Positions 148 through 56,448 of a stretch of DNA of 64,000 bases are shown here, one piece after another. A model generated the notes under the pieces. The model searched no databases, was not told where the DNA came from, and was given only the letters and a program-made list of their open reading frames with translations. This DNA is from a virus. The position numbers and the translations under genes were made by a program. Location of the stretch: the IMG/VR virus record IMGVR_UViG_3300031772_000009, positions 1-64,000 of that record; one strand, written 5' to 3'. The number at the start of each line of letters is the position of its first letter. Position 1 is the first letter of the stretch.

Positions 148-540
148 TTGCGAACTTATCCACCCAAAACCAGTGATACGTGTATTCTAGGACAAAAGGC
201 TAAAAATACCACTCATGAGTGGTATATAAAGGGTGGAACTTTCTGTAGTAGATGTCGAATAAAATTCACGTTTGAAGAAACCAACAAACTTCTTCTTAGA
301 GATACTGAGTTGGGTAGGAAACATGGTGTTCCACGATGTTGGAATTGTGGACAGTCGTTGAGGACAAGAAGCAAATCGTGTGACTGTGACGGTTTCTGGG
401 AAAGATTAAAGGAGAAACCAAAACTGAAATGTCCAAAATGTGGAACAGAAATGGTTGTTGGTGGTCAATTAGGATGGTCTGCTGAAGTTCTCTTTTGCCC
501 AAAATGTGAACCAAATAGGAAGAGTGAGAACCAGAAATGA
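148..540 (+). CDS. multi-zinc-finger hypothetical protein
   Basis: several CxxC pairs; ATGA overlap with next gene. Confidence 0.7.
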   Translation: MRTYPPKTSDTCILGQKAKNTTHEWYIKGGTFCSRCRIKFTFEETNKLLLRDTELGRKHGVPRCWNCGQSLRTRSKSCDCDGFWERLKEKPKLKCPKCGTEMVVGGQLGWSAEVLFCPKCEPNRKSENQK

Positions 541-1712
541 ACGAAGTTATTGGGATTTTTGCTGACCGTCCAGACATGGCAACTGGTATGGCTGTTGTCT
601 GTAGAAACTTAGCGTTGGGATTATCTCATTATCCAGCAAGAATAATCTATTTCGGAAGGTTTGGATGTGAAGTTGGATTCTCCAAGCAAACAACAGTTCA
701 TGACGACATTTTAAACTTTGATTACGTTCAGTGTGAAGGTAGAGTTTGGAAACCTAAAACAGTGATAGAAGCAGTGGAACATTACGGTGTAGACTACATC
801 TTCAGCGAAGACGACTTCTTTAGTGCTGGTGGTTTGGTTACTGCCTCACTGAAAACTAAGAAACCTTTGCACTTGCTTACTCCAATAGACAGTTTGCCAA
901 TTCATCCTAGAGCCTACGACATTTTCAAACGATGTAAGAAAGTTTACGTTCCAAACAGAAGTTACAAACTAATCAAAAATGGAGTGTTCTTGCCTCACGG
1001 AGTAGACACTAACCTATTCCATCCAGAAAATCACAATCATAACGAAAATAACACTTTCACTTTCTTGTGGGTTGGACGAGACGAACCACGAAAGGCAATG
1101 GGACGGGCAATAACGGCTCTGGAGAAAATCTACAGAAAAGTAGATTGTAAAATGATAATTCATAGTGACTGGAGAGCAGACATGGCGAAGAGGACAGCAC
1201 GTTTCTTACGTTACAAACGTGACCTTCCAGTAGTCATGACGCAAATGGAAGGTGGAAGCCATGCGAAACTTGGGCAAATCTATAATAATGCCGATGCCTT
1301 TATATGTACTAGCAAGGCTGGTGGTTTCGAAATGGGAATAACTGAAGCAATGGCTTGCGGTCTACCAGCAATAGTTACGGACTGGACTTTCATGCAAGAA
1401 CTGATTGACAGTATTTGTCCTTACATGTATCATAGTTGTTTAATAAAGGGTTGTGCAAACGGACTCTTAATTCCAATCTCAAGCACTTGTGAAGACTGGG
1501 TTGACTTGGGAGACGGTAGACGGTGGGGAATTCCTCTGGGAAGAAAATGGGGAAACATTTCAATTAACGCTTTAGCAGATGCAATGAGGTTCATGGTGAA
1601 TAATAGAGAGGTTGTAGATTGGATGGGACAGAAAGCGTTGGAGAAAGCCAAAAAGTATAACTGGAATGAGATTTCTGGAAAACTATACAAGGAGATAATC
1701 GAAAGTGAGTAA
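537..1712 (+). CDS. glycosyltransferase family 4 (GT-B)
   Basis: PHGVD, WVGR..PRK and GFEMGITEAMACGLP motifs. Confidence 0.92.
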   Translation: MNEVIGIFADRPDMATGMAVVCRNLALGLSHYPARIIYFGRFGCEVGFSKQTTVHDDILNFDYVQCEGRVWKPKTVIEAVEHYGVDYIFSEDDFFSAGGLVTASLKTKKPLHLLTPIDSLPIHPRAYDIFKRCKKVYVPNRSYKLIKNGVFLPHGVDTNLFHPENHNHNENNTFTFLWVGRDEPRKAMGRAITALEKIYRKVDCKMIIHSDWRADMAKRTARFLRYKRDLPVVMTQMEGGSHAKLGQIYNNADAFICTSKAGGFEMGITEAMACGLPAIVTDWTFMQELIDSICPYMYHSCLIKGCANGLLIPISSTCEDWVDLGDGRRWGIPLGRKWGNISINALADAMRFMVNNREVVDWMGQKALEKAKKYNWNEISGKLYKEIIESE

Positions 1713-2737: not shown

Positions 2738-2975
2738 CGGAAAGAAAGTTAGTGTAAAAAAGAAACTAAAAGCAAAGCAAATGTGGGTGGAACAGTTCTT
2801 CTATAAACTTGACGAATCAGAAAAACGAATAGACAGTTTAGAAAAACGAGTATCAGACATTTCAGTTACAGTTGCGTATGATATTGCAGAGTTGCGAAAA
2901 CGAATTGAATTAATAGAGGAATTTTTGGGTGGAGTAGAAAGCATTAAAAAGGTATTGAAAGATGCAAAAAGCTGA
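2730..2975 (+). CDS. coiled-coil hypothetical protein
   Basis: heptad pattern, operon coupling. Confidence 0.6.
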   Translation: MNNGKKVSVKKKLKAKQMWVEQFFYKLDESEKRIDSLEKRVSDISVTVAYDIAELRKRIELIEEFLGGVESIKKVLKDAKS

Positions 2976-3294
2976 AGACCCAAACATTAGAAAAATCGTG
3001 GTTGGCAAAGACTGTTACAGTAAATACTGTGCCAAATGTTCATACTGTGTAAAAGCAGAATGGAGTCCCAAAGAAGGATTCAAGTATGGTTGGATAGACG
3101 TTTACTGTTGCATGAATAGTGGAAAATGTAACCCACAATCAATGTGTCCAAATGGAATAGGATGGGATATGTGTCTGGGAGAAGCATTCGAATTCGACCC
3201 AGAAAAAATATGGAAACCAATGTATATCCCCGTTCTGGGAGAAGGACTGGTTGCCGTTTCAATTCCTAAAAAGGAATGGTGGAAAGACGAATGA
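2962..3294 (+). CDS. Cys-rich hypothetical protein
   Basis: operon coupling. Confidence 0.6.
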   Translation: MQKAEDPNIRKIVVGKDCYSKYCAKCSYCVKAEWSPKEGFKYGWIDVYCCMNSGKCNPQSMCPNGIGWDMCLGEAFEFDPEKIWKPMYIPVLGEGLVAVSIPKKEWWKDE

Positions 3295-3542
3295 TAGAAT
3301 TGTTAAGTAACATTGGAAACACACTGGCTTTCATTGCTAGTATTCCACAGATAATAACGGCTTATAGAAATCGAAGAAACCTTAAAGGATTGTCTTCTTT
3401 GATGCTTTTCATTTGTTTCATGGCTTACCTCTTCTTCATAATGGTAGCATATTTGAATGGGGCATATGTAGGCGTTGTCTTATGTTTAATTAGTGAAGTG
3501 TTCCACGTTCTACAATTTTACTGGAAGAGAAGATATAGATGA
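3291..3542 (+). CDS. PQ-loop/SemiSWEET-like 3-TM transporter
   Basis: IPQI motif, GLS, three hydrophobic helices; ATGA-coupled start at 3291. Confidence 0.75.
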   Translation: MIELLSNIGNTLAFIASIPQIITAYRNRRNLKGLSSLMLFICFMAYLFFIMVAYLNGAYVGVVLCLISEVFHVLQFYWKRRYR

Positions 3543-4696
3543 TAGACAAAATATTGTGGTGGTGTCCCACTCCTTGGGAAAATGACGGTGGAGCAATCGT
3601 TACCTTTTACCAAATGAGAGAAATGAATCAACAATGTCCAGAAATCACAAACCATTTAATACCTAAAGTGTGGAGTCAAGCAGACCAAACTGAACTTCCA
3701 TTCTGTAAATTTCATAAGGCAACAACGAAATATTTTGGTCAAGTACCCAATGAAATCCCCAAAATTATGAAGAGAGAACAAATCAAACTGTTGGTTTTGT
3801 TCCATATTCCATGGGAATATTTTCCAATAATAGACAAGGTTCATAAGATGGGTGGCAAAGTGATTAATTGGCAAACCATCCACTGGACTAATGACGTGTT
3901 GTTTCTAAGCGATAAACTTAAAGATTTTGATTGGTGGATTCCGCCAACACAATACGCAATGGAAACTTTAGTAGGGGTAGGTGGACTAAGTAGGGGTAGG
4001 ATGACTGTTATTCCACATGGAGTTGACACTTCATATTTCTTTCCGCATGACACAAGTGAACTTCGAAACAATTTAGGAATTAAACCAGACCAGAAAATGA
4101 TATTGTTTGTTGGAAGAGTACAACTTACCAAAGGAATAATTCCAATGATGCTCACAGCAAGAAAACTCTGTGATAATTTTGACTGTCACATAGTCTTTAA
4201 AGCTGGAGTTCATGATGGAGTCTGGAAAGCAAAAGAAATGGCTCATCTACTGCATAAAATGACAAAGTGGGATTCAAGAATACATTTCCTTACAAATTGG
4301 ACTACGCCAAGTTTCATGGAAGAATTAACAGCCGCATGTGACATTCTAGTTTGTCCAAGCGGTCACGAAGGATTCAGTCTTCCACCGTTAGAAGCTATGG
4401 CTTGCAATAAACCAGTAGCAATAACAGACATTCCAGTTCATAGAGAACTTCTAGGCGGCAAAAACGGCATATGTGGCTTATTGATGCCGCCCTTCATGTC
4501 AACAGAATACGTTAACGATGTCCAAATGGTCACTATTCCTTCAGACGATATGATTTATGGCTCAATAAAATATTTGTTGGAGAATCCAGACGAAGCAAAG
4601 GTAATGGGAGAGGAAGGTTTAAAAAGAGCAAAGCAATATTATGATTTACGTGAAGTGTGTAAAAAATGGTTCTCTCTTCTCAATAATTTCATCTAA
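3539..4696 (+). CDS. glycosyltransferase family 4
   Basis: IPHGVD, FVGR..KG, EGFSLPPLEAMAC. Confidence 0.93.
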   Translation: MIDKILWWCPTPWENDGGAIVTFYQMREMNQQCPEITNHLIPKVWSQADQTELPFCKFHKATTKYFGQVPNEIPKIMKREQIKLLVLFHIPWEYFPIIDKVHKMGGKVINWQTIHWTNDVLFLSDKLKDFDWWIPPTQYAMETLVGVGGLSRGRMTVIPHGVDTSYFFPHDTSELRNNLGIKPDQKMILFVGRVQLTKGIIPMMLTARKLCDNFDCHIVFKAGVHDGVWKAKEMAHLLHKMTKWDSRIHFLTNWTTPSFMEELTAACDILVCPSGHEGFSLPPLEAMACNKPVAITDIPVHRELLGGKNGICGLLMPPFMSTEYVNDVQMVTIPSDDMIYGSIKYLLENPDEAKVMGEEGLKRAKQYYDLREVCKKWFSLLNNFI

Positions 4697-4756: not shown

Positions 4757-5287
4757 ATTAAAAAAATCTGTGTAAATTGTGGAAAGGAATATGATTGTGG
4801 AAGGAAAAGACAAAGAGGAGCGAGTGCTAAAACATGTTCTTTTCAATGTTTTCAAGAATGGCAAAAGAAATATAGGAAAAATTACTATGAAAAAAATAAA
4901 GAATTAATTCTAAAAAAACAGTTAGTATATATTCATAAAAAGAGACAAGAAAATCCAGAATGGTGGAAAGAATATCTTCTAAAATCAGCAATTAAATTGA
5001 AGATGTGGAACGAAAAACATCCAAATTATATTAATGAAAGAAATGCTAAAAGAAAAAAGGAACTAATTGATTTGCTTGGTGGAAAATGCCAAAAATGTGG
5101 ATATGATAAATGTACTGCGGCTTTAGATTTTCATCATGTAAATTCAAACGATAAAGAAAAAAAATACAAGGTAAAGAAATCAAGAGAATGGAGATTATAT
5201 AAAAAAGAAATAGAACAAAACATAAAAGAAGGAAAAGTTATTCTTTTATGTTCTAATTGTCATAGGGAGATACACCATGATAATTAA
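4757..5287 (+). CDS. HNH homing endonuclease (probable ATT start)
   Basis: LGGKCQKCG..LDFHH..LLCSNCH; frame is open from ATT 4757 and encodes an N-terminal CxxC..CSxxC finger; own TATA at ~4710. Confidence 0.85.
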   Translation: MKKICVNCGKEYDCGRKRQRGASAKTCSFQCFQEWQKKYRKNYYEKNKELILKKQLVYIHKKRQENPEWWKEYLLKSAIKLKMWNEKHPNYINERNAKRKKELIDLLGGKCQKCGYDKCTAALDFHHVNSNDKEKKYKVKKSREWRLYKKEIEQNIKEGKVILLCSNCHREIHHDN

Positions 5288-7543: not shown

Positions 7544-7904
7544 ACATTATAAGATGAAAAGAAAGACATTACAAGAAGTTTTGGCGAATCCATACTTCAT
7601 CAAATTCATAGAAGACTTGAAAAATTGTTCAACTGTGAAAGAAATCTACATTGTTGGTTCAATGGTTAGGAAAGGAGTAAGTAACAAAGACGTTGATATA
7701 AAAGTTGTAAGGATTGAACAGAATATGGCTGGAGACAAAGAAATCTACAATTTGGTTGATTCCTTTCCACATTTGTCTCCACATAAAAAGAAGTTAACTG
7801 CAATAAAGTATTTCATGATTGGAGATATTCTAATCAATGTTTTCTGGAGTGAAATGAGATTTGATAAACCATATACTCTTTTATGGAGAAATGAAAGTGC
7901 CTAA
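7533..7904 (+). CDS. minimal nucleotidyltransferase (Pol-beta superfamily)
   Basis: IYIVGS...KDVDI. Confidence 0.75.
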   Translation: MRHEHYKMKRKTLQEVLANPYFIKFIEDLKNCSTVKEIYIVGSMVRKGVSNKDVDIKVVRIEQNMAGDKEIYNLVDSFPHLSPHKKKLTAIKYFMIGDILINVFWSEMRFDKPYTLLWRNESA

Positions 7905-8976
7905 AGTTAAAAAGTGTAGAAAATGTGGAAGAAAAATATCCTTTGCTGATGATAGAGATTACTGTGTTCCATGTGGCAAAATAGTAGTAGAAGAACAAAA
8001 ATTGCAAACACAACAGAACGAAAGAGAAAAACTGAATATGTATATACGACAGAAGGAAGAAGAACTTAGAAAGGAAGGTTTGGCTACAAGTAGAGGGTTT
8101 CTAAACGTTTTAGTAATTATTGATGCGTATGGATGGGCTTATGATTTCATCATGAGGGGGATTCAAAAATATAGTAAACATAATATTAGAATTGTGGCTA
8201 TTGCAGACATTACTAAAGAAGACGTGGAGTGGCTTGACGTTTTGTATTGTATGCATGGTTGCATATTGAATGATATATGCAATCATATTGGTCTTTTCAA
8301 AGACGTGAAAAGAAAATGTATTGGAATATTTAGTGAAGTGTATGACGAGGACATTATCAAGATGGTTGGATGGAATGTTGGAGTTGCAAACCAGAAAATC
8401 TATGATGATATAATGCGAAAAACTCCACGTATCCCATTGAAAGGATTATATGTTACAAGGGCTGGCGTTGACACTGAAATTTTCAAACCGATGGATAGAC
8501 CAGATAATAGATTCATTGTTGGTTGGGTTGGTTGGGCTGACCGTCCACTTAAACGTTACAGATTACTTAAAGACTTAAAGTTTCCATTTATAGTTCAAAC
8601 TAAATGGGGATGGAAATTCTTCGTTAAAGACCGTTCAAGAGATGAAATGATTGATTTCTACAGTAGAATAGACTGTTTGATAAACACAAGTGACTCGGAA
8701 GCGTTTCCTCTTCCAGTTCTTGAGGCGGCGGCAACTAGACTTCCAGTAGTGGCTACAAGGACGAGTGGAGTACCAGAATTCATAGATTCAGAATGGCTTG
8801 TTCCGATTAATCCAGAACATGTAGCCATGAGAGAAATGAATTCTAAACTTCAACTGTTAAAAGATAATTTATCGTTGCGAAAACAAGTTGGAGAACAAAA
8901 CTTGCAGAAAGTTTTAAATAGGTGGGCGTGGAAGTATATGGTAAAAGAGTTCGATAAAATGTTTGAAGAGTCATGA
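7891..8976 (+). CDS. glycosyltransferase family 4 with N-terminal zinc finger
   Basis: AGVD, VGWVG, SEAFPLPVLEAAA. Confidence 0.88.
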   Translation: MKVPKVKKCRKCGRKISFADDRDYCVPCGKIVVEEQKLQTQQNEREKLNMYIRQKEEELRKEGLATSRGFLNVLVIIDAYGWAYDFIMRGIQKYSKHNIRIVAIADITKEDVEWLDVLYCMHGCILNDICNHIGLFKDVKRKCIGIFSEVYDEDIIKMVGWNVGVANQKIYDDIMRKTPRIPLKGLYVTRAGVDTEIFKPMDRPDNRFIVGWVGWADRPLKRYRLLKDLKFPFIVQTKWGWKFFVKDRSRDEMIDFYSRIDCLINTSDSEAFPLPVLEAAATRLPVVATRTSGVPEFIDSEWLVPINPEHVAMREMNSKLQLLKDNLSLRKQVGEQNLQKVLNRWAWKYMVKEFDKMFEES

Positions 8977-9764: not shown

Positions 9765-10375
9765 TATTAGCAATAGGAGCACATCCAGACGATATTGAAT
9801 TTGGTTGTTTTGGAACGTTGGCACGACTATCAAAAGTTCATGACATACACATTATTATCTTAACTCTGGGTGAATTGGCTGGTTCAAGCATTGTGAGAAT
9901 GGAAGAATGTAGACAGAGTGCAAAGTTGATTAATGCCACTCTACATTTCTTGGATTATGAAGAAGGAGACATATCTGTTAATGCTAGTAGTATTTTGAAA
10001 CTCAGAAATCACATTCGGTCAATTAATCCAAACATGATATTTACACTGTATCCTCAAGACACACATCAAGACCACAGAAATACTTCACAAATTACGGTTT
10101 CCGCTTGCCGTGATTGGAAACCAGATAGACAGAATATTGATGAAATACTATTTTACGAAGTAGTTAGCACAACGAATTTTCGTCCTAACATGTTTTATGA
10201 CATTACTGACTTTTTCCCTTTGAAAAAATCGGCTTTATCCATTCACTCATCCCAAAATGCAAAGATTTGCATGGATTTGAAAGTCTTGGAAGCATTGGCT
10301 CTCGTACATGCCAACAACTGTGGTTATAAAGACCGCTTATTCGAAGCGTTCTATCTATACAAAGCGGTTAAATGA
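9758..10375 (+). CDS. PIG-L/LmbE family deacetylase
   Basis: GAHPDDIE, HQDH, HSSQ. Confidence 0.93.
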   Translation: MVVLAIGAHPDDIEFGCFGTLARLSKVHDIHIIILTLGELAGSSIVRMEECRQSAKLINATLHFLDYEEGDISVNASSILKLRNHIRSINPNMIFTLYPQDTHQDHRNTSQITVSACRDWKPDRQNIDEILFYEVVSTTNFRPNMFYDITDFFPLKKSALSIHSSQNAKICMDLKVLEALALVHANNCGYKDRLFEAFYLYKAVK

Positions 10376-11460
10376 GGGACTACATAATGGAAAGTGAGAA
10401 AGAGAAATATCGCCAAGCCTTTCAAAACTTCATTGGTAAGCAAGAAATAAATGATTTGATTTTTCCGAGAATATATTGGTTTGACGATGCGTTGTTAGAC
10501 CAATATGAAGTTGGTTTTCCAATACTCAAAAAATACAATTTAAAACATGGAGTAATTCTAGCAGTTCCAACCAGATATGTGGGCAAAACTTTTCCGTGGA
10601 CAGACCCATATGTAGATTTGCCAATGATGAATATTAGTCAAATAAAAGAAATGATGGAGTATGGTGTTTTAATTGCAAGTCACACTGTCACACATTCATG
10701 TTTTAAAGGCATGACTAAAGAAAGATTGGTTTGGGAATTAACTGAAAGCAAAAAATGGATAGAAACAAATTTGGGAGTCACTCCTAAAATTCTTGTTGTT
10801 CCCTTCAATGATTATTCTCAAGAACAAAAAGACATTATTCTTGAACATTATTCACATGTTAGACCATCCACAATCCCATCCATATCTGGTTATTACAACC
10901 TTCACCATAACTTTAGAGACGATAAAGAAAAGAAGTTGTCAAAAAGGTGGGGAAAAGAATTTTTTAAACTGTTAACTCCAGCTTTTGAAGACAAGATAAA
11001 AATGGAACGTTCAGTACGATTTTCATTGGGATTTTATGATTTGAAAACTGAGTTTGACAAGACCAAAATCAAGATTCCAGAAATCTCTCTTCCAGAAGGA
11101 TATAGAGTTTGTTTTGCTATTCCAGATAAGGATGGGAAACTTTGCGAGAAAGACAAACAAATATGGCATTCACTACATAGTAACGAAATGTTCGTCAAGA
11201 TTGTTCATCCAGAAAACGCCGAAGGAGTAATATTTGCTTATTATAAAGATGAGCCGATTGGATGTTTCGTTGTAAACACTTATGGAGACACAGTTGAATT
11301 TGAACATGCTATAGTAGTTGAATTTCATAGAAGGAAGGGAATATACAAAGCAATGATGGTTCTTGGTCTCCATTATGCTGTGCAAAAGCAAGAAATTAAA
11401 TGGATAATAGCGATTCCACTTCAAACGTTAGAATCTTTTTGGGACAAAGTAAGAGGATGA
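10372..11460 (+). CDS. polysaccharide deacetylase fused to GNAT domain
   Basis: FDD, ASHTVTH (NodB); C-terminal V..FHRRKGIY. Confidence 0.8.
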   Translation: MRDYIMESEKEKYRQAFQNFIGKQEINDLIFPRIYWFDDALLDQYEVGFPILKKYNLKHGVILAVPTRYVGKTFPWTDPYVDLPMMNISQIKEMMEYGVLIASHTVTHSCFKGMTKERLVWELTESKKWIETNLGVTPKILVVPFNDYSQEQKDIILEHYSHVRPSTIPSISGYYNLHHNFRDDKEKKLSKRWGKEFFKLLTPAFEDKIKMERSVRFSLGFYDLKTEFDKTKIKIPEISLPEGYRVCFAIPDKDGKLCEKDKQIWHSLHSNEMFVKIVHPENAEGVIFAYYKDEPIGCFVVNTYGDTVEFEHAIVVEFHRRKGIYKAMMVLGLHYAVQKQEIKWIIAIPLQTLESFWDKVRG

Positions 11461-11464
11461 AAAA

Positions 11465-12403
11465 ATGAAAATTGTTTGGTTGGGAACTTTCAGAGAATGT
11501 CCATCTTGGAGATATTTCAGAAGAGACTTGAAAAATTACGTGGAACTAAAATGTTATGGAGAATCTCCTAACCCAAACCGTCTAAATGAAATGGGTGGGG
11601 ACACTTCTCATTTTTATAAAACGAACATAAATGACTGGATTGAAGGTTACGATGTTAAGGAAATAGAAAGGTTAGAGAATCCAGATTGGATATTTATCTG
11701 TGCTTACAGTAGTAAAATGAATTACTTAAACTTGGATAAAGTGCAAACTCCAAAAGCCATTTGGATAGGCGACCCGATTCAAGACAAAGTTAGAATTTTT
11801 CCAAAAATAAAGGAATGGAAAATAGATAAAGTGTTCTGTCATTATTGGACGGGAACAATTGAACCTTACATGGAAGAATATAAAGCCGATTATTATCATC
11901 TTCCACACTCAGTTGATACTAAAGTTTTCTATCCTACTGGGAAAGAAAGGTCTTTAGATTTGGCTTTTGCTGGATGTATTAACTCCTATTGGTATCCTCT
12001 TCGAGACAAATACATTAGACACTTAAATAATCTACGGAAACATAAAATACAAATCAGTGAACATTTTGGCACTATAGAAGAATACGTTGATTTGATAAAT
12101 CGAGCAAGATTCTTTCTTGCAGATGGTGGACTATATAGATATGCCGTTTGTAAATATTTTGAAATCATGGCTTGTCAAACCGTACCTATCGGTGCAGAAC
12201 CACTAGATGCAGACATTCTTCACATTAAATCAAATTTCAATCTAGCTCCCATGCGGGGAGACCATATCATTGAAGATTTTATTTATTGGATTGAAAACGA
12301 GAAAGAACGTGAATCTTTGGCTAAAGCGGCATATGAGACAGTCATGAAATATCACACTAACAAAATAAGAATAAAACAACTTTTGGAAATGTTGAAGAAA
12401 TGA
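11465..12403 (+). CDS. glycosyltransferase (CgeB-like)
   Basis: LPHSVD, YPLR, KYFEIMAC, HT..RI. Confidence 0.8.
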   Translation: MKIVWLGTFRECPSWRYFRRDLKNYVELKCYGESPNPNRLNEMGGDTSHFYKTNINDWIEGYDVKEIERLENPDWIFICAYSSKMNYLNLDKVQTPKAIWIGDPIQDKVRIFPKIKEWKIDKVFCHYWTGTIEPYMEEYKADYYHLPHSVDTKVFYPTGKERSLDLAFAGCINSYWYPLRDKYIRHLNNLRKHKIQISEHFGTIEEYVDLINRARFFLADGGLYRYAVCKYFEIMACQTVPIGAEPLDADILHIKSNFNLAPMRGDHIIEDFIYWIENEKERESLAKAAYETVMKYHTNKIRIKQLLEMLKK

Positions 12404-12452: not shown

Positions 12453-13364
12453 ATGAAGATATTGGTAACTGGTGGTTCGGGATTCATAGGAAGCCACTTA
12501 GTAGATTTGCTTTTAGATAAAGGTTATCAAGTTAGTGTTGTAGATGGACATCCAGTGAAAAACAAAAATGCTGAATGGATTGATGGAGATTTGAGATGGA
12601 TAGGCGACTGTGACAAATCCGTAGAAGGAAAAGACGTAGTATTCCATCTAGCCGCTAGAATCAGCATTGACGAATCAATTGACCGTGTTTGGCACTATTT
12701 CAATGATAACTATCTGTCAACCATAAATATTTGTATGTCTTGTAAGAAATTCAACGTAAAACGTTTAGTTGACATTTCCTCTTGTGAAGTATATGGCAAT
12801 GTTCCTAAAGGCAAAGCAGACGAATCTAACCCTTGCAACCCAACATCGCCTTACGCCGCAAGCAAATATGCGGCTGAACGTAGTGCAATAGCATTTTGCA
12901 GTTCATTCAACATTCCAATAACTGTTATCCGTCCATTCAACGTCTTCGGAGAAAGACAAAAAGCTTTCCGTGGCGGTTCAGTGATTCCCACATTCATACA
13001 ATTAGCGTTACATGACAAACCTTTAATCATACATGGTGACGGCAACCAAATCAGAGACTATCTATATGTTAAAGACACTGTTGGTTTGTTATCACTTACG
13101 TTAGAAAGAGAGTTGGGAAACACTGAGATTCTAAACGTTGCTTCTGGAGATGGACGAACAATAAAAGACATAGCAGAAAAAATCATTGAATATACGAAAA
13201 GCAATTCTAAACTTGAATTCATTGATGACCCCAGAGGAAAAGCACAAATGTTGAGGAGTGTTGGAAATTCAGACAGAGCTAGGACGTTGTTAGGATGGAG
13301 ACCCATTTATGACTTTGATTCGGCTCTGAAAAAAACAATTGAGTTCTATAAAAAAACCGAGTGA
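12453..13364 (+). CDS. NAD-dependent nucleotide-sugar epimerase/dehydratase
   Basis: VTGGSGFIG, YAASK, RPFNVFG, GDGNQIRDY. Confidence 0.95.
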   Translation: MKILVTGGSGFIGSHLVDLLLDKGYQVSVVDGHPVKNKNAEWIDGDLRWIGDCDKSVEGKDVVFHLAARISIDESIDRVWHYFNDNYLSTINICMSCKKFNVKRLVDISSCEVYGNVPKGKADESNPCNPTSPYAASKYAAERSAIAFCSSFNIPITVIRPFNVFGERQKAFRGGSVIPTFIQLALHDKPLIIHGDGNQIRDYLYVKDTVGLLSLTLERELGNTEILNVASGDGRTIKDIAEKIIEYTKSNSKLEFIDDPRGKAQMLRSVGNSDRARTLLGWRPIYDFDSALKKTIEFYKKTE

Positions 13365-13915: not shown

Positions 13916-14196
13916 TGCCATATATTAAAAAAGCTTTAAGAGAACCAATAGATGAAAAATTAGACCTGTTAATAGGACGACTGAATGAAATGCTTACCTA
14001 TATAGATGGGAAAGACTTAGCCGCATGTCTAACTTACATAGTTTTCAAACTCATTCGTAGATACTATGAAAATGGTAAATGGTATGACAAGATGGACGCT
14101 GAGAAAGTTTGTGCATCAGCAATAGACGAATTCAAAAGACGATTCCTTCATCCATATGAAGAGATGAAAATTGCAGAAAATGGAGATGTTTATTAA
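13915..14196 (+). CDS. conserved viral protein (DUF6899-like)
   Basis: MPYIK...EFKRR..PYE.KI.ENGDV. Confidence 0.7.
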   Translation: MPYIKKALREPIDEKLDLLIGRLNEMLTYIDGKDLAACLTYIVFKLIRRYYENGKWYDKMDAEKVCASAIDEFKRRFLHPYEEMKIAENGDVY

Positions 14197-14414
14197 TGCC
14201 AAGAGGAAATGTAGACATGTCTGAGAAAACAAAAAGACATAAGGTATCTGGACATGGAAGTGTCTCTAAGGCTGGAAAAGTTAGGAATCAAACTCCCAAA
14301 GTTCCTAAAAGTGTAAGTCATTCTAAACGTAGTTGCCCCCGCCTCAAGAACAAAAAGAAATATTATAACCGAATGATTCTAAAGCGAAAGTGTGGTCAAA
14401 ACTGGGTGAAATGA
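14196..14414 (+). CDS. rps30e: 30S ribosomal protein eS30
   Basis: HGSVSKAGKVRNQTPK...PR..N..Y..R...GQNW signature. Confidence 0.9.
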   Translation: MPRGNVDMSEKTKRHKVSGHGSVSKAGKVRNQTPKVPKSVSHSKRSCPRLKNKKKYYNRMILKRKCGQNWVK

Positions 14415-54438: not shown

Positions 54439-54648
54439 TTAAACGGTTGGAATGATGTATGTTATGATGACAGTGACTTTTCCTTGGCTACTAACTTCGC
54501 TTGCGAGACCCCTTATTTCTACTGGACCATAAGATAGTCGTCTAAGACGAATTTCATCAACGATTTCTTGAGACGTTCCAACGAGAATTTCAATCGTGTT
54601 GCCCTTGCTGTCTTCACTGCAATGTGATACATAACTTGCTACAGCCAT
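54439..54648 (-). CDS. hypothetical protein
   Basis: divergent TATA near 54665. Confidence 0.5.
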   Translation of the reverse strand: MAVASYVSHCSEDSKGNTIEILVGTSQEIVDEIRLRRLSYGPVEIRGLASEVSSQGKVTVIITYIIPTV

Positions 54649-54738
54649 TTTAATTCACGTTTATACAATGGAGAAACATTGTTAAAAGCTTTTTGTCAAG
54701 GCAACGTTTATATATGCCGTTTGCACTAGGTATTAAAT

Positions 54739-54818
54739 GCGGAGATAGTTCAAAAGTCCAGAACGGTTGGCATCCCGCCAACAGATGACAGACAACGGAA
54801 TCTAGTCTCTCCGCACCA
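54739..54818 (+). tRNA. non-canonical tRNA-Gly(TCC)-like RNA with encoded CCA
   Basis: acceptor GCGGAGA/TCTCCGC-A-CCA, D stem GTTC/GAAC, anticodon stem GTTGG/CCAAC with loop CA-TCC-CG, T arm without TTC; TATA at 54707. Confidence 0.8.
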
Positions 54819-54822
54819 AAAA

Positions 54823-55194
54823 GTGATTGACTTGACGACTGAACAATTGAGGGAACTTCGAGAGAAACTTGAGAAGTGTTGGTGTAAAGAAACAATTTGG
54901 CATAAAAATACTTGGAATCCAGACAAACTTTCTAAGGGTCAATGTTACGTTACCGCATTACTAATTCAAAATATTTTGGGTGGAAGAATTTTTCATGGTA
55001 CTGTTGAGAATGAAAATCATTACTGGAATGAACTTCCAGACGGGACAGAAGTAGATTTGACTTCAGACCAATTTGACGATGGAGACGGAATTCATGTTCA
55101 TCTAAAACATTTCTTTTTGAGTGTTGTCACTCCTAATAAAAGAAACAAACGTTACTTAATATTGAAGGAGAAATATCTTGCCGTCAATAAGTAA
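54823..55194 (+). CDS. YunG-like Cys-His-Asp protein
   Basis: GQCYVTAL..LGG..HYWN..G.EVDLT.QF. Confidence 0.75.
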   Translation: MIDLTTEQLRELREKLEKCWCKETIWHKNTWNPDKLSKGQCYVTALLIQNILGGRIFHGTVENENHYWNELPDGTEVDLTSDQFDDGDGIHVHLKHFFLSVVTPNKRNKRYLILKEKYLAVNK

Positions 55195-55909
55195 AAGGAC
55201 AGAACCATGTTTCGTCTGTGGAAAACAAGGTAAATATGGCGTGTTCGGAAGATATTACTGTGAAGAATGTTATGCTAAACGTCCCCACCGTGGTCATGGA
55301 AGCGGCGGCATGATTGCACTTTCAGAAGAGGAACTCCAATATGAACTCAACAAGGACATTTCATACCACGGCAAACCGTATTTTTTGAAAGTTCCTAAAG
55401 GACACAAAGTTTTTGCTAGTCTGTTTCTTTCACATTATCCAGAGAGTAAAGGCATAGTTGGAAGAAGCATAAACTATCTGATTCTATACGGAAATAGAAT
55501 AGTTGGAATAATAGGACTGATGAATCCGCCTTACGCCATAGAATCAATAGACGACTATTTTGGAATAAACAAAGACAATCGTAATGCCAAAAACTTAGAG
55601 ATAGCAAATAATCATGTGTTCAGACTGGTAAGCAACGAACCTAACCTTGCAAGCCGATGTTTGCGACTGTTAAGAAAGGTTGGAGTCAAGGATTGGCAAG
55701 ACAAATACGGCGTGGTTCTGAAAGGTCTACTCACGTTTGTTGAGCCGCCGAGAAACGGAATTTGTTATTTGGCTGACAACTGGAAATATCTTGGCATGAC
55801 TAAAGGTTTCGGGACTACTCAACGTTCAAACAGATGGGAAAATAGAAAGTGGGTTAAGAAGTCTAAAAAACATATATTTGTTATCAAACTGGTCGTAGGT
55901 GTTCAATAA
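55178..55909 (+). CDS. Mom-related GNAT-fold protein (DUF4338/DruA-like)
   Basis: HY..GR..Y, NN.F, NLAS, DW..YG, TFVE, G..Y.A.NW..LG.TKG. Confidence 0.78.
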   Translation: MPSISKRTEPCFVCGKQGKYGVFGRYYCEECYAKRPHRGHGSGGMIALSEEELQYELNKDISYHGKPYFLKVPKGHKVFASLFLSHYPESKGIVGRSINYLILYGNRIVGIIGLMNPPYAIESIDDYFGINKDNRNAKNLEIANNHVFRLVSNEPNLASRCLRLLRKVGVKDWQDKYGVVLKGLLTFVEPPRNGICYLADNWKYLGMTKGFGTTQRSNRWENRKWVKKSKKHIFVIKLVVGVQ

Positions 55910-56139
55910 AAATGAACATATTGGAGTTTATTGAACACTGTAAGAAGTGTCCGAGACGAAGTAAATGTCATTTCATGGGTTGTATATTGGATGAAAGGTA
56001 ACATAGGTATCGGAATAATCGTCAAATGTCAACGATGTGGCAAGTTGGGCGATGACCGTGACATTTCAACCATATTATTTCCAGATGGAAGCGAGAAAAC
56101 TCTATGTGAAGAATGTTTCCAAAAGGAGACTAAACAGAA

Positions 56140-56448
56140 ATGAAATGGGGATATATTGGAAGAAAACAAAGAAAGAGAGTTTTAGAGAGGGATGAACATA
56201 AATGTTTTATTTGTTGGCGAAAATATCAATTGACAATCCATCATCATTATGATTTTACTGGAAAGATTCTTCCTAAACGTGAAAATGTTTTATGTAATCT
56301 ACCATACCATGAACCAAGAGATTGTGATTTAGTTACACTGTGTAAAGTTTGTCATGGAAAAATCCAAGTTTGTGAGAAGGGAAGTCCTCTATATAGATTA
56401 GTTACTGAATATCTTGCCAACTTGAGTTTAAAGGAGAACCAAAAATGA
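56140..56448 (+). CDS. HNH endonuclease
   Basis: VLERD..C..C...LTIHH...LVTLC..CH. Confidence 0.8.
   Translation: MKWGYIGRKQRKRVLERDEHKCFICWRKYQLTIHHHYDFTGKILPKRENVLCNLPYHEPRDCDLVTLCKVCHGKIQVCEKGSPLYRLVTEYLANLSLKENQK

Follow-up and report, generated by a model that had tools for sequence, protein, structure and literature searches.

The Mom protein of phage Mu moves glycine from Gly-tRNAGly to the N6 position of adenine in double-stranded DNA; it probably reads mainly the acceptor end of the tRNA and draws on the tRNA pool of the host, a use of a charged tRNA for DNA modification that was shown recently (PMC13219725). In Staphylococcus aureus, non-proteinogenic tRNA-Gly isoacceptors are the glycine donors for FemXAB in cell-wall synthesis (PMC7826273), and a published domain survey calls DruA a GNAT domain (PMC10853773). 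Here, we analyzed positions 1 to 64,000 of the IMG/VR virus record IMGVR_UViG_3300031772_000009 (hereafter, the window), in which an 80-nucleotide (nt) tRNA-Gly-derived RNA is followed, on the same strand, by the genes of a YunG-family protein and of a GNAT of the DruA/DUF4338 family. Our favored reading, to which we assign a probability of roughly 0.55, is that the RNA descends from a tRNA-Gly and has specialized as a non-translating glycine carrier for the GNAT encoded after it. An earlier reading of the sequence alone (the original prediction) had named Gly-tRNA as the donor that Mom uses for adenine modification, and the literature confirms this (PMC13219725).

The RNA, assigned on its structure, conservation, and covariation, occupies positions 54739-54818 of the plus strand, in a 174-bp spacer that lies between a minus-strand open reading frame (ORF, 54439-54648) and the plus-strand genes and that also holds a putative promoter. 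Its cloverleaf begins with a 7-bp acceptor stem (GCGGAGA/TCTCCGC, 54739-54745/54808-54814) and continues with U8 and A9 and with a D-arm (54748-54764) whose stem, GTTC/GAAC, closes the loop AAAAGTCCA, without GG (no G18G19). The anticodon arm (54766-54782) has the stem GTTGG/CCAAC and the loop CATCCCG, with A33 at 54772 and the anticodon TCC at 54773-54775, and is followed by the variable region AGAT. The T-arm (54787-54807) reads GACAGA / CAACGGAA / TCT-A-GTC, that is, 3 bp, a bulged A at 54804, and 3 bp, around a T-loop that is not canonical; the discriminator A73 (54815) and an encoded CCA (54816-54818) complete the molecule. The full archaeal/eukaryal identity set for glycyl-tRNA synthetase (GlyRS), namely G1-C72, C2-G71, G3-C70, C35, C36, A73, and CCA, is present, while the marks of a canonical tRNA (U33, G18-G19, a T54-Psi55-C56 loop, and an unbroken 5-bp T-stem) are all absent. 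The original prediction had described the sequence accurately, from the TATA box at 54707 through the 80-nt cloverleaf with TCC, A73, and CCA to the YunG-like and Mom/DUF4338-like genes that follow; it had also listed the GlyRS identity elements and the loss of U33, G18G19, and the T-loop, to which the broken T-stem is now added.

A low or pseudogene score from tRNA finders had been anticipated, and neither ARAGORN nor Rfam makes a call. ARAGORN reports no tRNA at the element in its default, intron, relaxed, or mitochondrial modes, and its default mode finds none in the window or in the genome; the element is also absent among the 33 of 40 ARAGORN calls listed at the 80% threshold. Rfam gave no match on a 351-nt stretch even at E <= 10, and RF00005 gave none at E <= 1 for the relatives L035, L036, L039, L045, L081, L016, L106, and G001 (L numbers are our handles for loci, and G001 is a 112-kb virus). 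In the whole 91-kb genome, the window RNA is the sole match to the RNA covariance model R1, and it is the only tRNA-like gene of this complete virus.

Homologues of the GNAT (89, down to about 35% identity) and their loci were taken from viral, metagenome, and genome collections, and RNAs were sought in these loci by blastn, stem rules, ARAGORN, and the covariance model, with the RNA-model and pattern searches tuned to glycine-like tRNAs. The original prediction had set conservation of the RNA beside Mom-like genes in related viruses as its own test, with a positive outcome: in the window and at 12 other distinct loci (L035, L036, L037, L039, L042, L043, L045, L081, L106, L244, L016, which equals L018 and L054, and G001), a DruA-like gene is accompanied, on its own strand, by a gene for a tRNA-Gly or for an RNA that resembles one. 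In ten of these 12, the RNA and the DruA-like gene are about 0.6 kb apart or less, and nine of about ten close relatives (GNAT identity of at least 47%, with enough flanking DNA) have a linked RNA. A strict DNA pattern for the RNA found no match in viral contigs; a looser, acceptor-type pattern matched 117 viral loci, none with a DruA-like gene, and these were reused as a control set.

Among the closest relatives, L035 (GNAT 92% identical) has the same RNA at 85% identity, with U33 and A37, and L036 (66%) has the gene order RNA, YunG, GNAT. In L045 and L039, the RNA lies immediately 5' of the GNAT gene, with no YunG between them: L045 (77%) has a 72-nt RNA with the loop TATCCAT, 18 nt before the GNAT start, and L039 (53%) has the loop CCACCAG, a GAAA tetraloop in place of the T-loop, and a GNAT ORF that starts 3 nt past the CCA. 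Some relatives have canonical or near-canonical tRNA genes. L042 and L043 (47%) have a tRNA-Gly(GCC) accepted by ARAGORN upstream of the GNAT gene, at about 35 nt in L043, where YunG is nearby; in L037 (62%), a canonical tRNA-Gly(UCC) belongs to a small group of tRNA genes that follows the GNAT gene. In L043, the GNAT frame is open across the whole tRNA-Gly gene (L043:1968-2142), and no ATG, GTG, or TTG occurs from the CCA to the conserved GNAT N-terminus EEYAQKGKHFG. Degenerate tRNA-Gly-like genes are present on four bacterial-type contigs, L081, L016, L106, and L244, of which L244 comes from a Woesebacteria metagenome-assembled genome (MAG).

G001 (GNAT 53%) contains the locus L008, which has no RNA within 2.5 kb; the full record has one 3.2 kb upstream. 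This 87-nt RNA, with the loop TCACCC, stands at the head of an operon that encodes two paralogous DruA proteins; the best-matching GNAT copy lies 3.2 kb downstream of the RNA, and the second paralogue 1.3 kb downstream of it. In the coordinates of L240 (G001:68800-73800), all on the minus strand, the RNA is at 4779-4865 and the DruA-family ORFs are at 2853-3521 and 794-1615, with eight small ORFs of no known family between and around them.

Comparison of the linked RNAs favors the cloverleaf. In a MAFFT alignment of nine of them, some picked with pairing rules for the acceptor, D, and anticodon stems and none with a requirement for T-stem pairing, 96.5% of the cells are paired, as against 71% after shuffling, and compensatory changes occur in 14 of the 19 pairs, across all four stems. 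The covariation score is 0.78 as against 0.26 for shuffled alignments; none of 500 shuffles reaches it, and slid registers give at most 0.19. No rules for the D- or anticodon stem were used in finding L035, L036, and L045, and the first of them supplies one of the compensatory changes, D-stem C13-G22 to U-A. The window sequence taken by itself is more stable than shuffled sequence (z = -3.4), but the cloverleaf (-22.5 kcal/mol) is not its fold of lowest energy (-26.7 kcal/mol); in an alternative, more stable fold, UAGUUC of the D-stem 5' strand pairs with GAAUCUA of the T-arm. Because this gap amounts to about 4 kcal/mol, the case for the cloverleaf is a comparative one.

This fold, together with the non-tRNA score of the window sequence alone, is what would be expected of a decaying tRNA pseudogene, of an integration-site remnant, or of a chance fold. 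We find such an origin hardly credible in view of the compensatory changes in all four stems across divergent viruses, the conserved promoter spacing, and the bulge in the T-stem, a shared derived feature. Among the neighboring ORFs scanned, no integrase family was found, and an attachment-site copy would match the 3' half of a canonical host tRNA; the attachment-site or pseudogene origin was rejected on the covariation and on the non-canonical 3' half.

The features that the linked RNAs keep and lose were then compared with what glycylation and translation each demand of a tRNA. The glycine identity set comprises G1-C72, C2-G71, G3-C70, C35, and C36, with A73 typical of archaea and U73 of bacteria (PMC9976931). 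All 13 linked RNAs, including the window's, have NCC in the anticodon loop, G1-C72, and C2-G71, and G3-C70 is kept throughout the aligned nine except in L036, where it is G-U. The discriminator is A73 in the archaeal-type members, whose RNAs span 72-87 nt, and U73 in the bacterial-type L081, L016, and L244, with A in L106; the linked RNAs retain G10-Y25, and most encode the CCA. On the other side, eight of the 13 either have A or C in place of U33 or have an anticodon loop of 6 or 8 nt, and just four retain the TTC T-loop and GG D-loop. In ten, the T-stem is interrupted on its 3' side by a one-base bulge (A in seven, G in three), at a distance of 2-3 bp from the acceptor stem; these ten include L042, L043, and L244, whose T-loop remains normal.

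The controls differ from the linked RNAs in these respects. The tRNA-Gly genes in the tRNA arrays of two large phages with DruA-like genes are canonical, as are nearly all of the 26 NCC cloverleaves in the 117 viral loci without a DruA-like gene, and the T-stem bulge does not occur in viral tRNA-Gly genes unlinked to DruA. Since the unlinked genes stay canonical, the odd features go with DruA linkage and are not a general trait of viral tRNA-Gly genes. These results bear directly on the view that the RNA is an ordinary, if unusual, translational tRNA-Gly for GGA/GGG codons, whose place near the GNAT gene would reflect chance or common descent. Many viruses do carry tRNA genes, ARAGORN accepts the tRNA-Gly of L037, L042, and L043, and L035 keeps U33 and A37. 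Such a tRNA would nevertheless not be expected to escape ARAGORN and Rfam, to have A33, no T-loop, no G18G19, and a bulged T-stem, or to have relatives with 6- or 8-nt loops and, in one case, a GAAA tetraloop, when unlinked viral tRNA-Gly genes are canonical. A glycine anticodon was found in 13 of 13 linked RNAs (by searches tuned to glycine-like tRNAs), and in the two close relatives whose sole ARAGORN-called tRNA adjoins the enzyme gene, that tRNA is a tRNA-Gly in both. We therefore consider a translational role highly improbable. A separate proposal of the original prediction, a swapped elbow contact in which TCC of the D-loop pairs with GGA of the T-loop, did not survive the comparison and was rejected: L035 has AGA in place of GGA without compensation, and no consistent complementarity occurs in the other members.

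Upstream of the RNA lies an archaeal-type promoter (54700-54715, plus strand), predicted from a BRE-like (transcription factor B recognition element) GGCAACG at 54700-54706 and a TATA box, TTTATATAT, at 54707-54715, 23 nt before G1. The window, L035, L045, L036, L039, and G001 share a common layout, in which a purine-rich RCAAC-type element and TATA are followed, after 21-23 nt, by TAAT or ATAT and then by G1. This layout probably represents a BRE/TATA promoter of the archaeal kind, from which transcription would start at G1 or beside it; this placement derives from the TATA spacing in these six sequences. The first ORF begins 3-90 nt after the RNA in the window, L035, L036, L039, L043, L045, and G001 (3-20 nt in most members), and no T-run terminator occurs between the CCA and the next ORF in those loci; in the window, the GTG start of YunG is 4 nt past the CCA. 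Because there is no T-run after the CCA and the next ORF is very near, the RNA and the enzyme genes are probably on one transcript, which makes the co-transcription originally suggested plausible.

The same arrangement would suit a cis-acting tRNA-like leader on the mRNA that controls a potentially toxic enzyme, or a processing signal that makes the 5' end of the mRNA; in a variant of this idea, the leader would be a mimic that binds the GNAT or GlyRS, in the manner of the thrS mRNA, which mimics tRNA-Thr. The promoter in front of G1 and the same-strand position shortly before the first ORF, with no terminator between, agree with it, as does the near-leaderless mRNA with a GUG start that a cut after the CCA would leave in the window. 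Furthermore, Mu mom is, according to database annotation, tightly controlled at translation by Com. A leader, however, does not account for the tRNA genes that lie downstream of the GNAT gene (L037 and L081), 1 kb upstream of it (L016), or 3.2 kb upstream (G001), nor for the near-canonical, ARAGORN-recognised tRNA-Gly that L042 and L043 carry at the same place, and a plain leader would not need C35-C36, a discriminator matched to the domain, or an exact CCA end. On balance, we judge this explanation unlikely, although it is the rival that we weigh most heavily.

The GNAT gene (55178-55909, plus strand) encodes 243 aa from a TTG start that overlaps the end of the YunG gene, with GGAG 8 nt upstream; the start MPSISKRT is common to homologues. 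The protein matches Pfam PF14236 (DruA) with E 8.2e-15, and its score of 55.2 bits (53.9 bits when the genome was searched) exceeds the cut-off of 27. It has an N-terminal CxxC...CxxC zinc ribbon, and this ribbon (residues 8-43; 55178-55300) bears a weak likeness to the zinc finger at the N-terminus of NcsA, an archaeal tRNA U34 thiolase (6scy, E 0.04), which may be just a generic resemblance between zinc ribbons. The AlphaFold model (predicted local distance difference test score, pLDDT, 85.7) has a GNAT fold, and its top Foldseek match among 350,000 PDB chains is Mom of phage Mu (8bv8, E 2.8e-6). VIA-align superposes the two over 163 residues with Z 14.2 and a root-mean-square deviation of 3.9; the next GNAT reaches Z 12.9 over 135 residues. 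In the hhalign comparison, H58-Y59 and Y159 of Mom align with H86-Y87 and Y197, which are invariant in the family of the window GNAT, and the RxGxxY159xAxN(F/W) motif of Mom likewise aligns with invariant residues. A global hhalign alignment of the GNAT family with Mom was unsuccessful, a PDB sequence profile search did not reach Mom, and PHROG 1384, "Mom-like", matches the window GNAT only faintly (E 0.0085). The window GNAT is a member of the DruA family and not of the Pfam Mom family; thus, of the Mom-like GNAT that had been predicted, the GNAT fold and Mom as the best solved match were borne out, while the family proved to be a different one.

The structural comparison also bears on the idea that the RNA is a decoy or shield, either absorbing host defenses directed against tRNA-Gly (anticodon nucleases or acceptor-end toxins) or restraining a TacT-like GNAT that acetylates Gly-tRNAGly. 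TacT and similar GNAT toxins target Gly-tRNAGly by the identity of its acceptor stem (PMC9976931), the toxSAS FaRel2 is reported to pick tRNA-Gly by the same part (PMC11559606), and the acceptor end and the anticodon CC are exactly what the RNA retains. But it is Mom, not TacT or AtaT, that is the best structural match of the GNAT; an anticodon-nuclease bait should have retained an ordinary anticodon loop; and a shield would have no need to stay closely linked to a single enzyme family in archaeal- and bacterial-type viruses alike. This possibility appears unlikely as well, and we place it behind that of a leader. Either role, leader or decoy/shield, could coexist with that of a carrier.

The gene between the RNA and the GNAT gene (54823-55194, plus strand, GTG start) encodes a 123-aa protein of the YunG family (PF24585; E 3.1e-28, 98.7 bits against a cut-off of 27). 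C41, H66, E76, and D78 are invariant in its alignment. Its AlphaFold model (pLDDT 94) has no significant Foldseek match; the weak structural matches, with Z 5-7, are all papain/transglutaminase-like Cys-His-Asp enzymes, and the protein is probably a small thiol enzyme of this kind. At least five loci (L034, L035, L036, L043, and L106) have YunG together with a DruA-like gene, and, because YunG is absent from L045, we take it to be an accessory part; a deacylase, amidase, or acyl-transfer step would be a guess at what it does. Used as a query against viral contigs, YunG found no relative, and our literature search turned up no paper on the protein. Among the differences listed between the window and sediment metagenome contigs from close relatives, many are in the YunG gene (54857-55176), and one contig has a diverged 111-nt replacement in it.

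The virus record is complete (91,361 bp, with direct terminal repeats), and the window is its first 64 kb. Besides YunG, the neighbors of the GNAT gene are a small zinc-finger ORF immediately after it (DUF7685, at the cut-off; 55931-56143, plus strand), an HNH-endonuclease-like ORF (PHROG 119, E 1e-6; 56140-56448, plus strand), and small ORFs of no assigned family. Elsewhere, a 72-aa ORF (14196-14414, plus strand) encodes eS30 (PF04758, E 1.2e-12), a ribosomal protein of eukaryotes and archaea, and, outside the window, a 725-aa Lon-like protease with archaeal LonB AAA-LID and Lon_C domains is encoded at genome positions 77604-79781 (plus strand; L245:13604-15781). Because of this eS30, the LonB-type protease, the A73 discriminators, and the presence of an archaeal MAG contig among the relatives, the host appears to be archaeal. 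A cluster of ORFs in the window (537-1712, 3539-4696, 7861-8976, 11465-12403, 10372-11460, and 12453-13364) forms a large module for building glycans, with glycosyltransferases of the GT4 type, a GNAT-fused polysaccharide deacetylase, and a sugar epimerase/dehydratase that is NAD-dependent. A blastn search of the locus against a phage collection gave no match, and 12 of the 13 public runs with the locus are sediment or groundwater metagenomes.

If the RNA is a glycine carrier, the system could work as follows. Transcription would start at or next to G1 from the BRE/TATA promoter and read through the RNA into the YunG and GNAT genes, and the RNA would be cut free after its encoded CCA. The host GlyRS would load it with glycine by way of G1-C72, C2-G71, G3-C70, C35, C36, and A73; because it lacks U33, G18G19, and a T-loop and has a bulged A in its T-stem, the RNA would be poorly accepted by the elongation factor and by the ribosome. 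The DruA-family GNAT, with its Mom-like build, would then move the glycyl group from the RNA to a target, most likely, by analogy with Mom, a base in the virus's own DNA, which would be protected in this way from host nucleases. Since Mom uses Gly-tRNAGly, the linkage of the GNAT to a glycine tRNA fits Mom's co-substrate. We infer the start site, the processing, the charging, the exclusion from translation, the transfer by the GNAT, and its target, and, likewise, the anti-restriction role and any role of YunG. The simplest account of its origin is that a tRNA-Gly gene was captured beside a Mom-like transferase, after which its chargeability and its acceptor end remained under selection while selection for ribosomal use lapsed or was reversed.

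Several observations weigh against a carrier of this kind. With regard to the RNA, its minimum-energy fold departs from the cloverleaf, as described above; its release would require a 3' cut directly after the encoded CCA; its constant position in the 5' part of the same transcript, in the loci with this layout, also fits a regulatory leader; and the 13 public runs that contain the locus (DNA or unclassified) include no RNA run. The linkage is, in addition, not universal, as L040/L041 have no match to the RNA model within 2.5 kb. With regard to the enzyme, a Pfam scan at E <= 0.1 returned only DruA and a weak PHF5, and not PF25680, the Mom family, on which Mu Mom itself scores 253 bits. The hhalign match between the GNAT family and Mom is marginal (E 0.007) and only local, and the region around the essential R111, S124, D149, and R151 of Mom is aligned with low confidence only. 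Finally, the target of a DruA-family enzyme could be something other than DNA.

A broader generalization can be put forward more tentatively, as we hold it to be somewhat less probable than not: viruses of archaea and bacteria would encode a distinct class of tRNA-Gly-derived carriers that have the T-stem bulge and no longer have the features that face the ribosome. Charged by the host GlyRS, these RNAs would be set aside, perhaps bound to the enzyme, to donate glycyl groups to DruA/Mom-type GNATs for the hypermodification of viral DNA, and, by extension, the DruA of Druantia would be dependent on an aminoacyl-tRNA. If the carrier reading is true, a glycine carrier supplied by the virus and shielded from the ribosome would be a new way to separate a modification pathway from translation, and archaeal viruses would have their first proposed tRNA-dependent system of this kind. 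The large DruA/DUF4338 family, including the Druantia defense protein, gains a concrete, testable co-substrate. The T-stem bulge provides an experimental handle, as it may keep the elongation factor away or be what the enzyme recognizes, and also a signature with which to find members that standard tRNA finders overlook.

We found no paper that links DruA/DUF4338 or Mom homologues to virus-encoded tRNA-Gly genes; the Mom study is silent on DUF4338, DruA, and archaea, and no tRNA encoded by a virus comes up in its Discussion (PMC13219725). The DruA of Druantia type I belongs to the same Pfam family as the window GNAT. Unlike the Druantia gene, that of the window is short, stand-alone, and viral, and it lies in an operon with a tRNA-like RNA and YunG; none of the Druantia partner genes, including the large DruE helicase, is among its neighbors.

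Leaderless transcription of tRNAs was reportedly described in Nanoarchaeum equitans by Randau et al. in 2008. The present locus resembles that case in having a promoter placed for a start at tRNA position 1, so that RNase P would not be needed, and differs from it in that the start is deduced from the TATA spacing in six sequences and in that protein genes follow on the transcript. The staphylococcal tRNA-Gly isoacceptors, in turn, are chargeable by GlyRS, are kept away from the ribosome by an altered D-loop and T-arm, and feed a non-translational transferase, all of which would also apply to the viral RNAs. They are, however, cellular and recognizable tRNAs with a normal T-loop and an unbroken T-stem, whereas the viral RNAs have lost far more (U33, the T-loop, the continuity of the T-stem, and the usual size of the anticodon loop), are encoded by viruses, and lie beside the gene of their presumed user.

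The closest comparison is with Mom (PF25680; 8bv8). Like the window protein, Mom is a viral enzyme with a GNAT fold, and the H-Y and RxGxxYxAxN(F/W) motifs are present in both. Unlike Mom, the window protein, which is known here from its sequence and its model, belongs to the DruA family (PF14236), has an N-terminal zinc ribbon, and comes from a virus with an apparently archaeal host. Lastly, Mu encodes no tRNA and uses the tRNA-Gly of its host, whereas the virus studied here encodes, next to its GNAT gene, a tRNA-Gly-derived RNA of its own.

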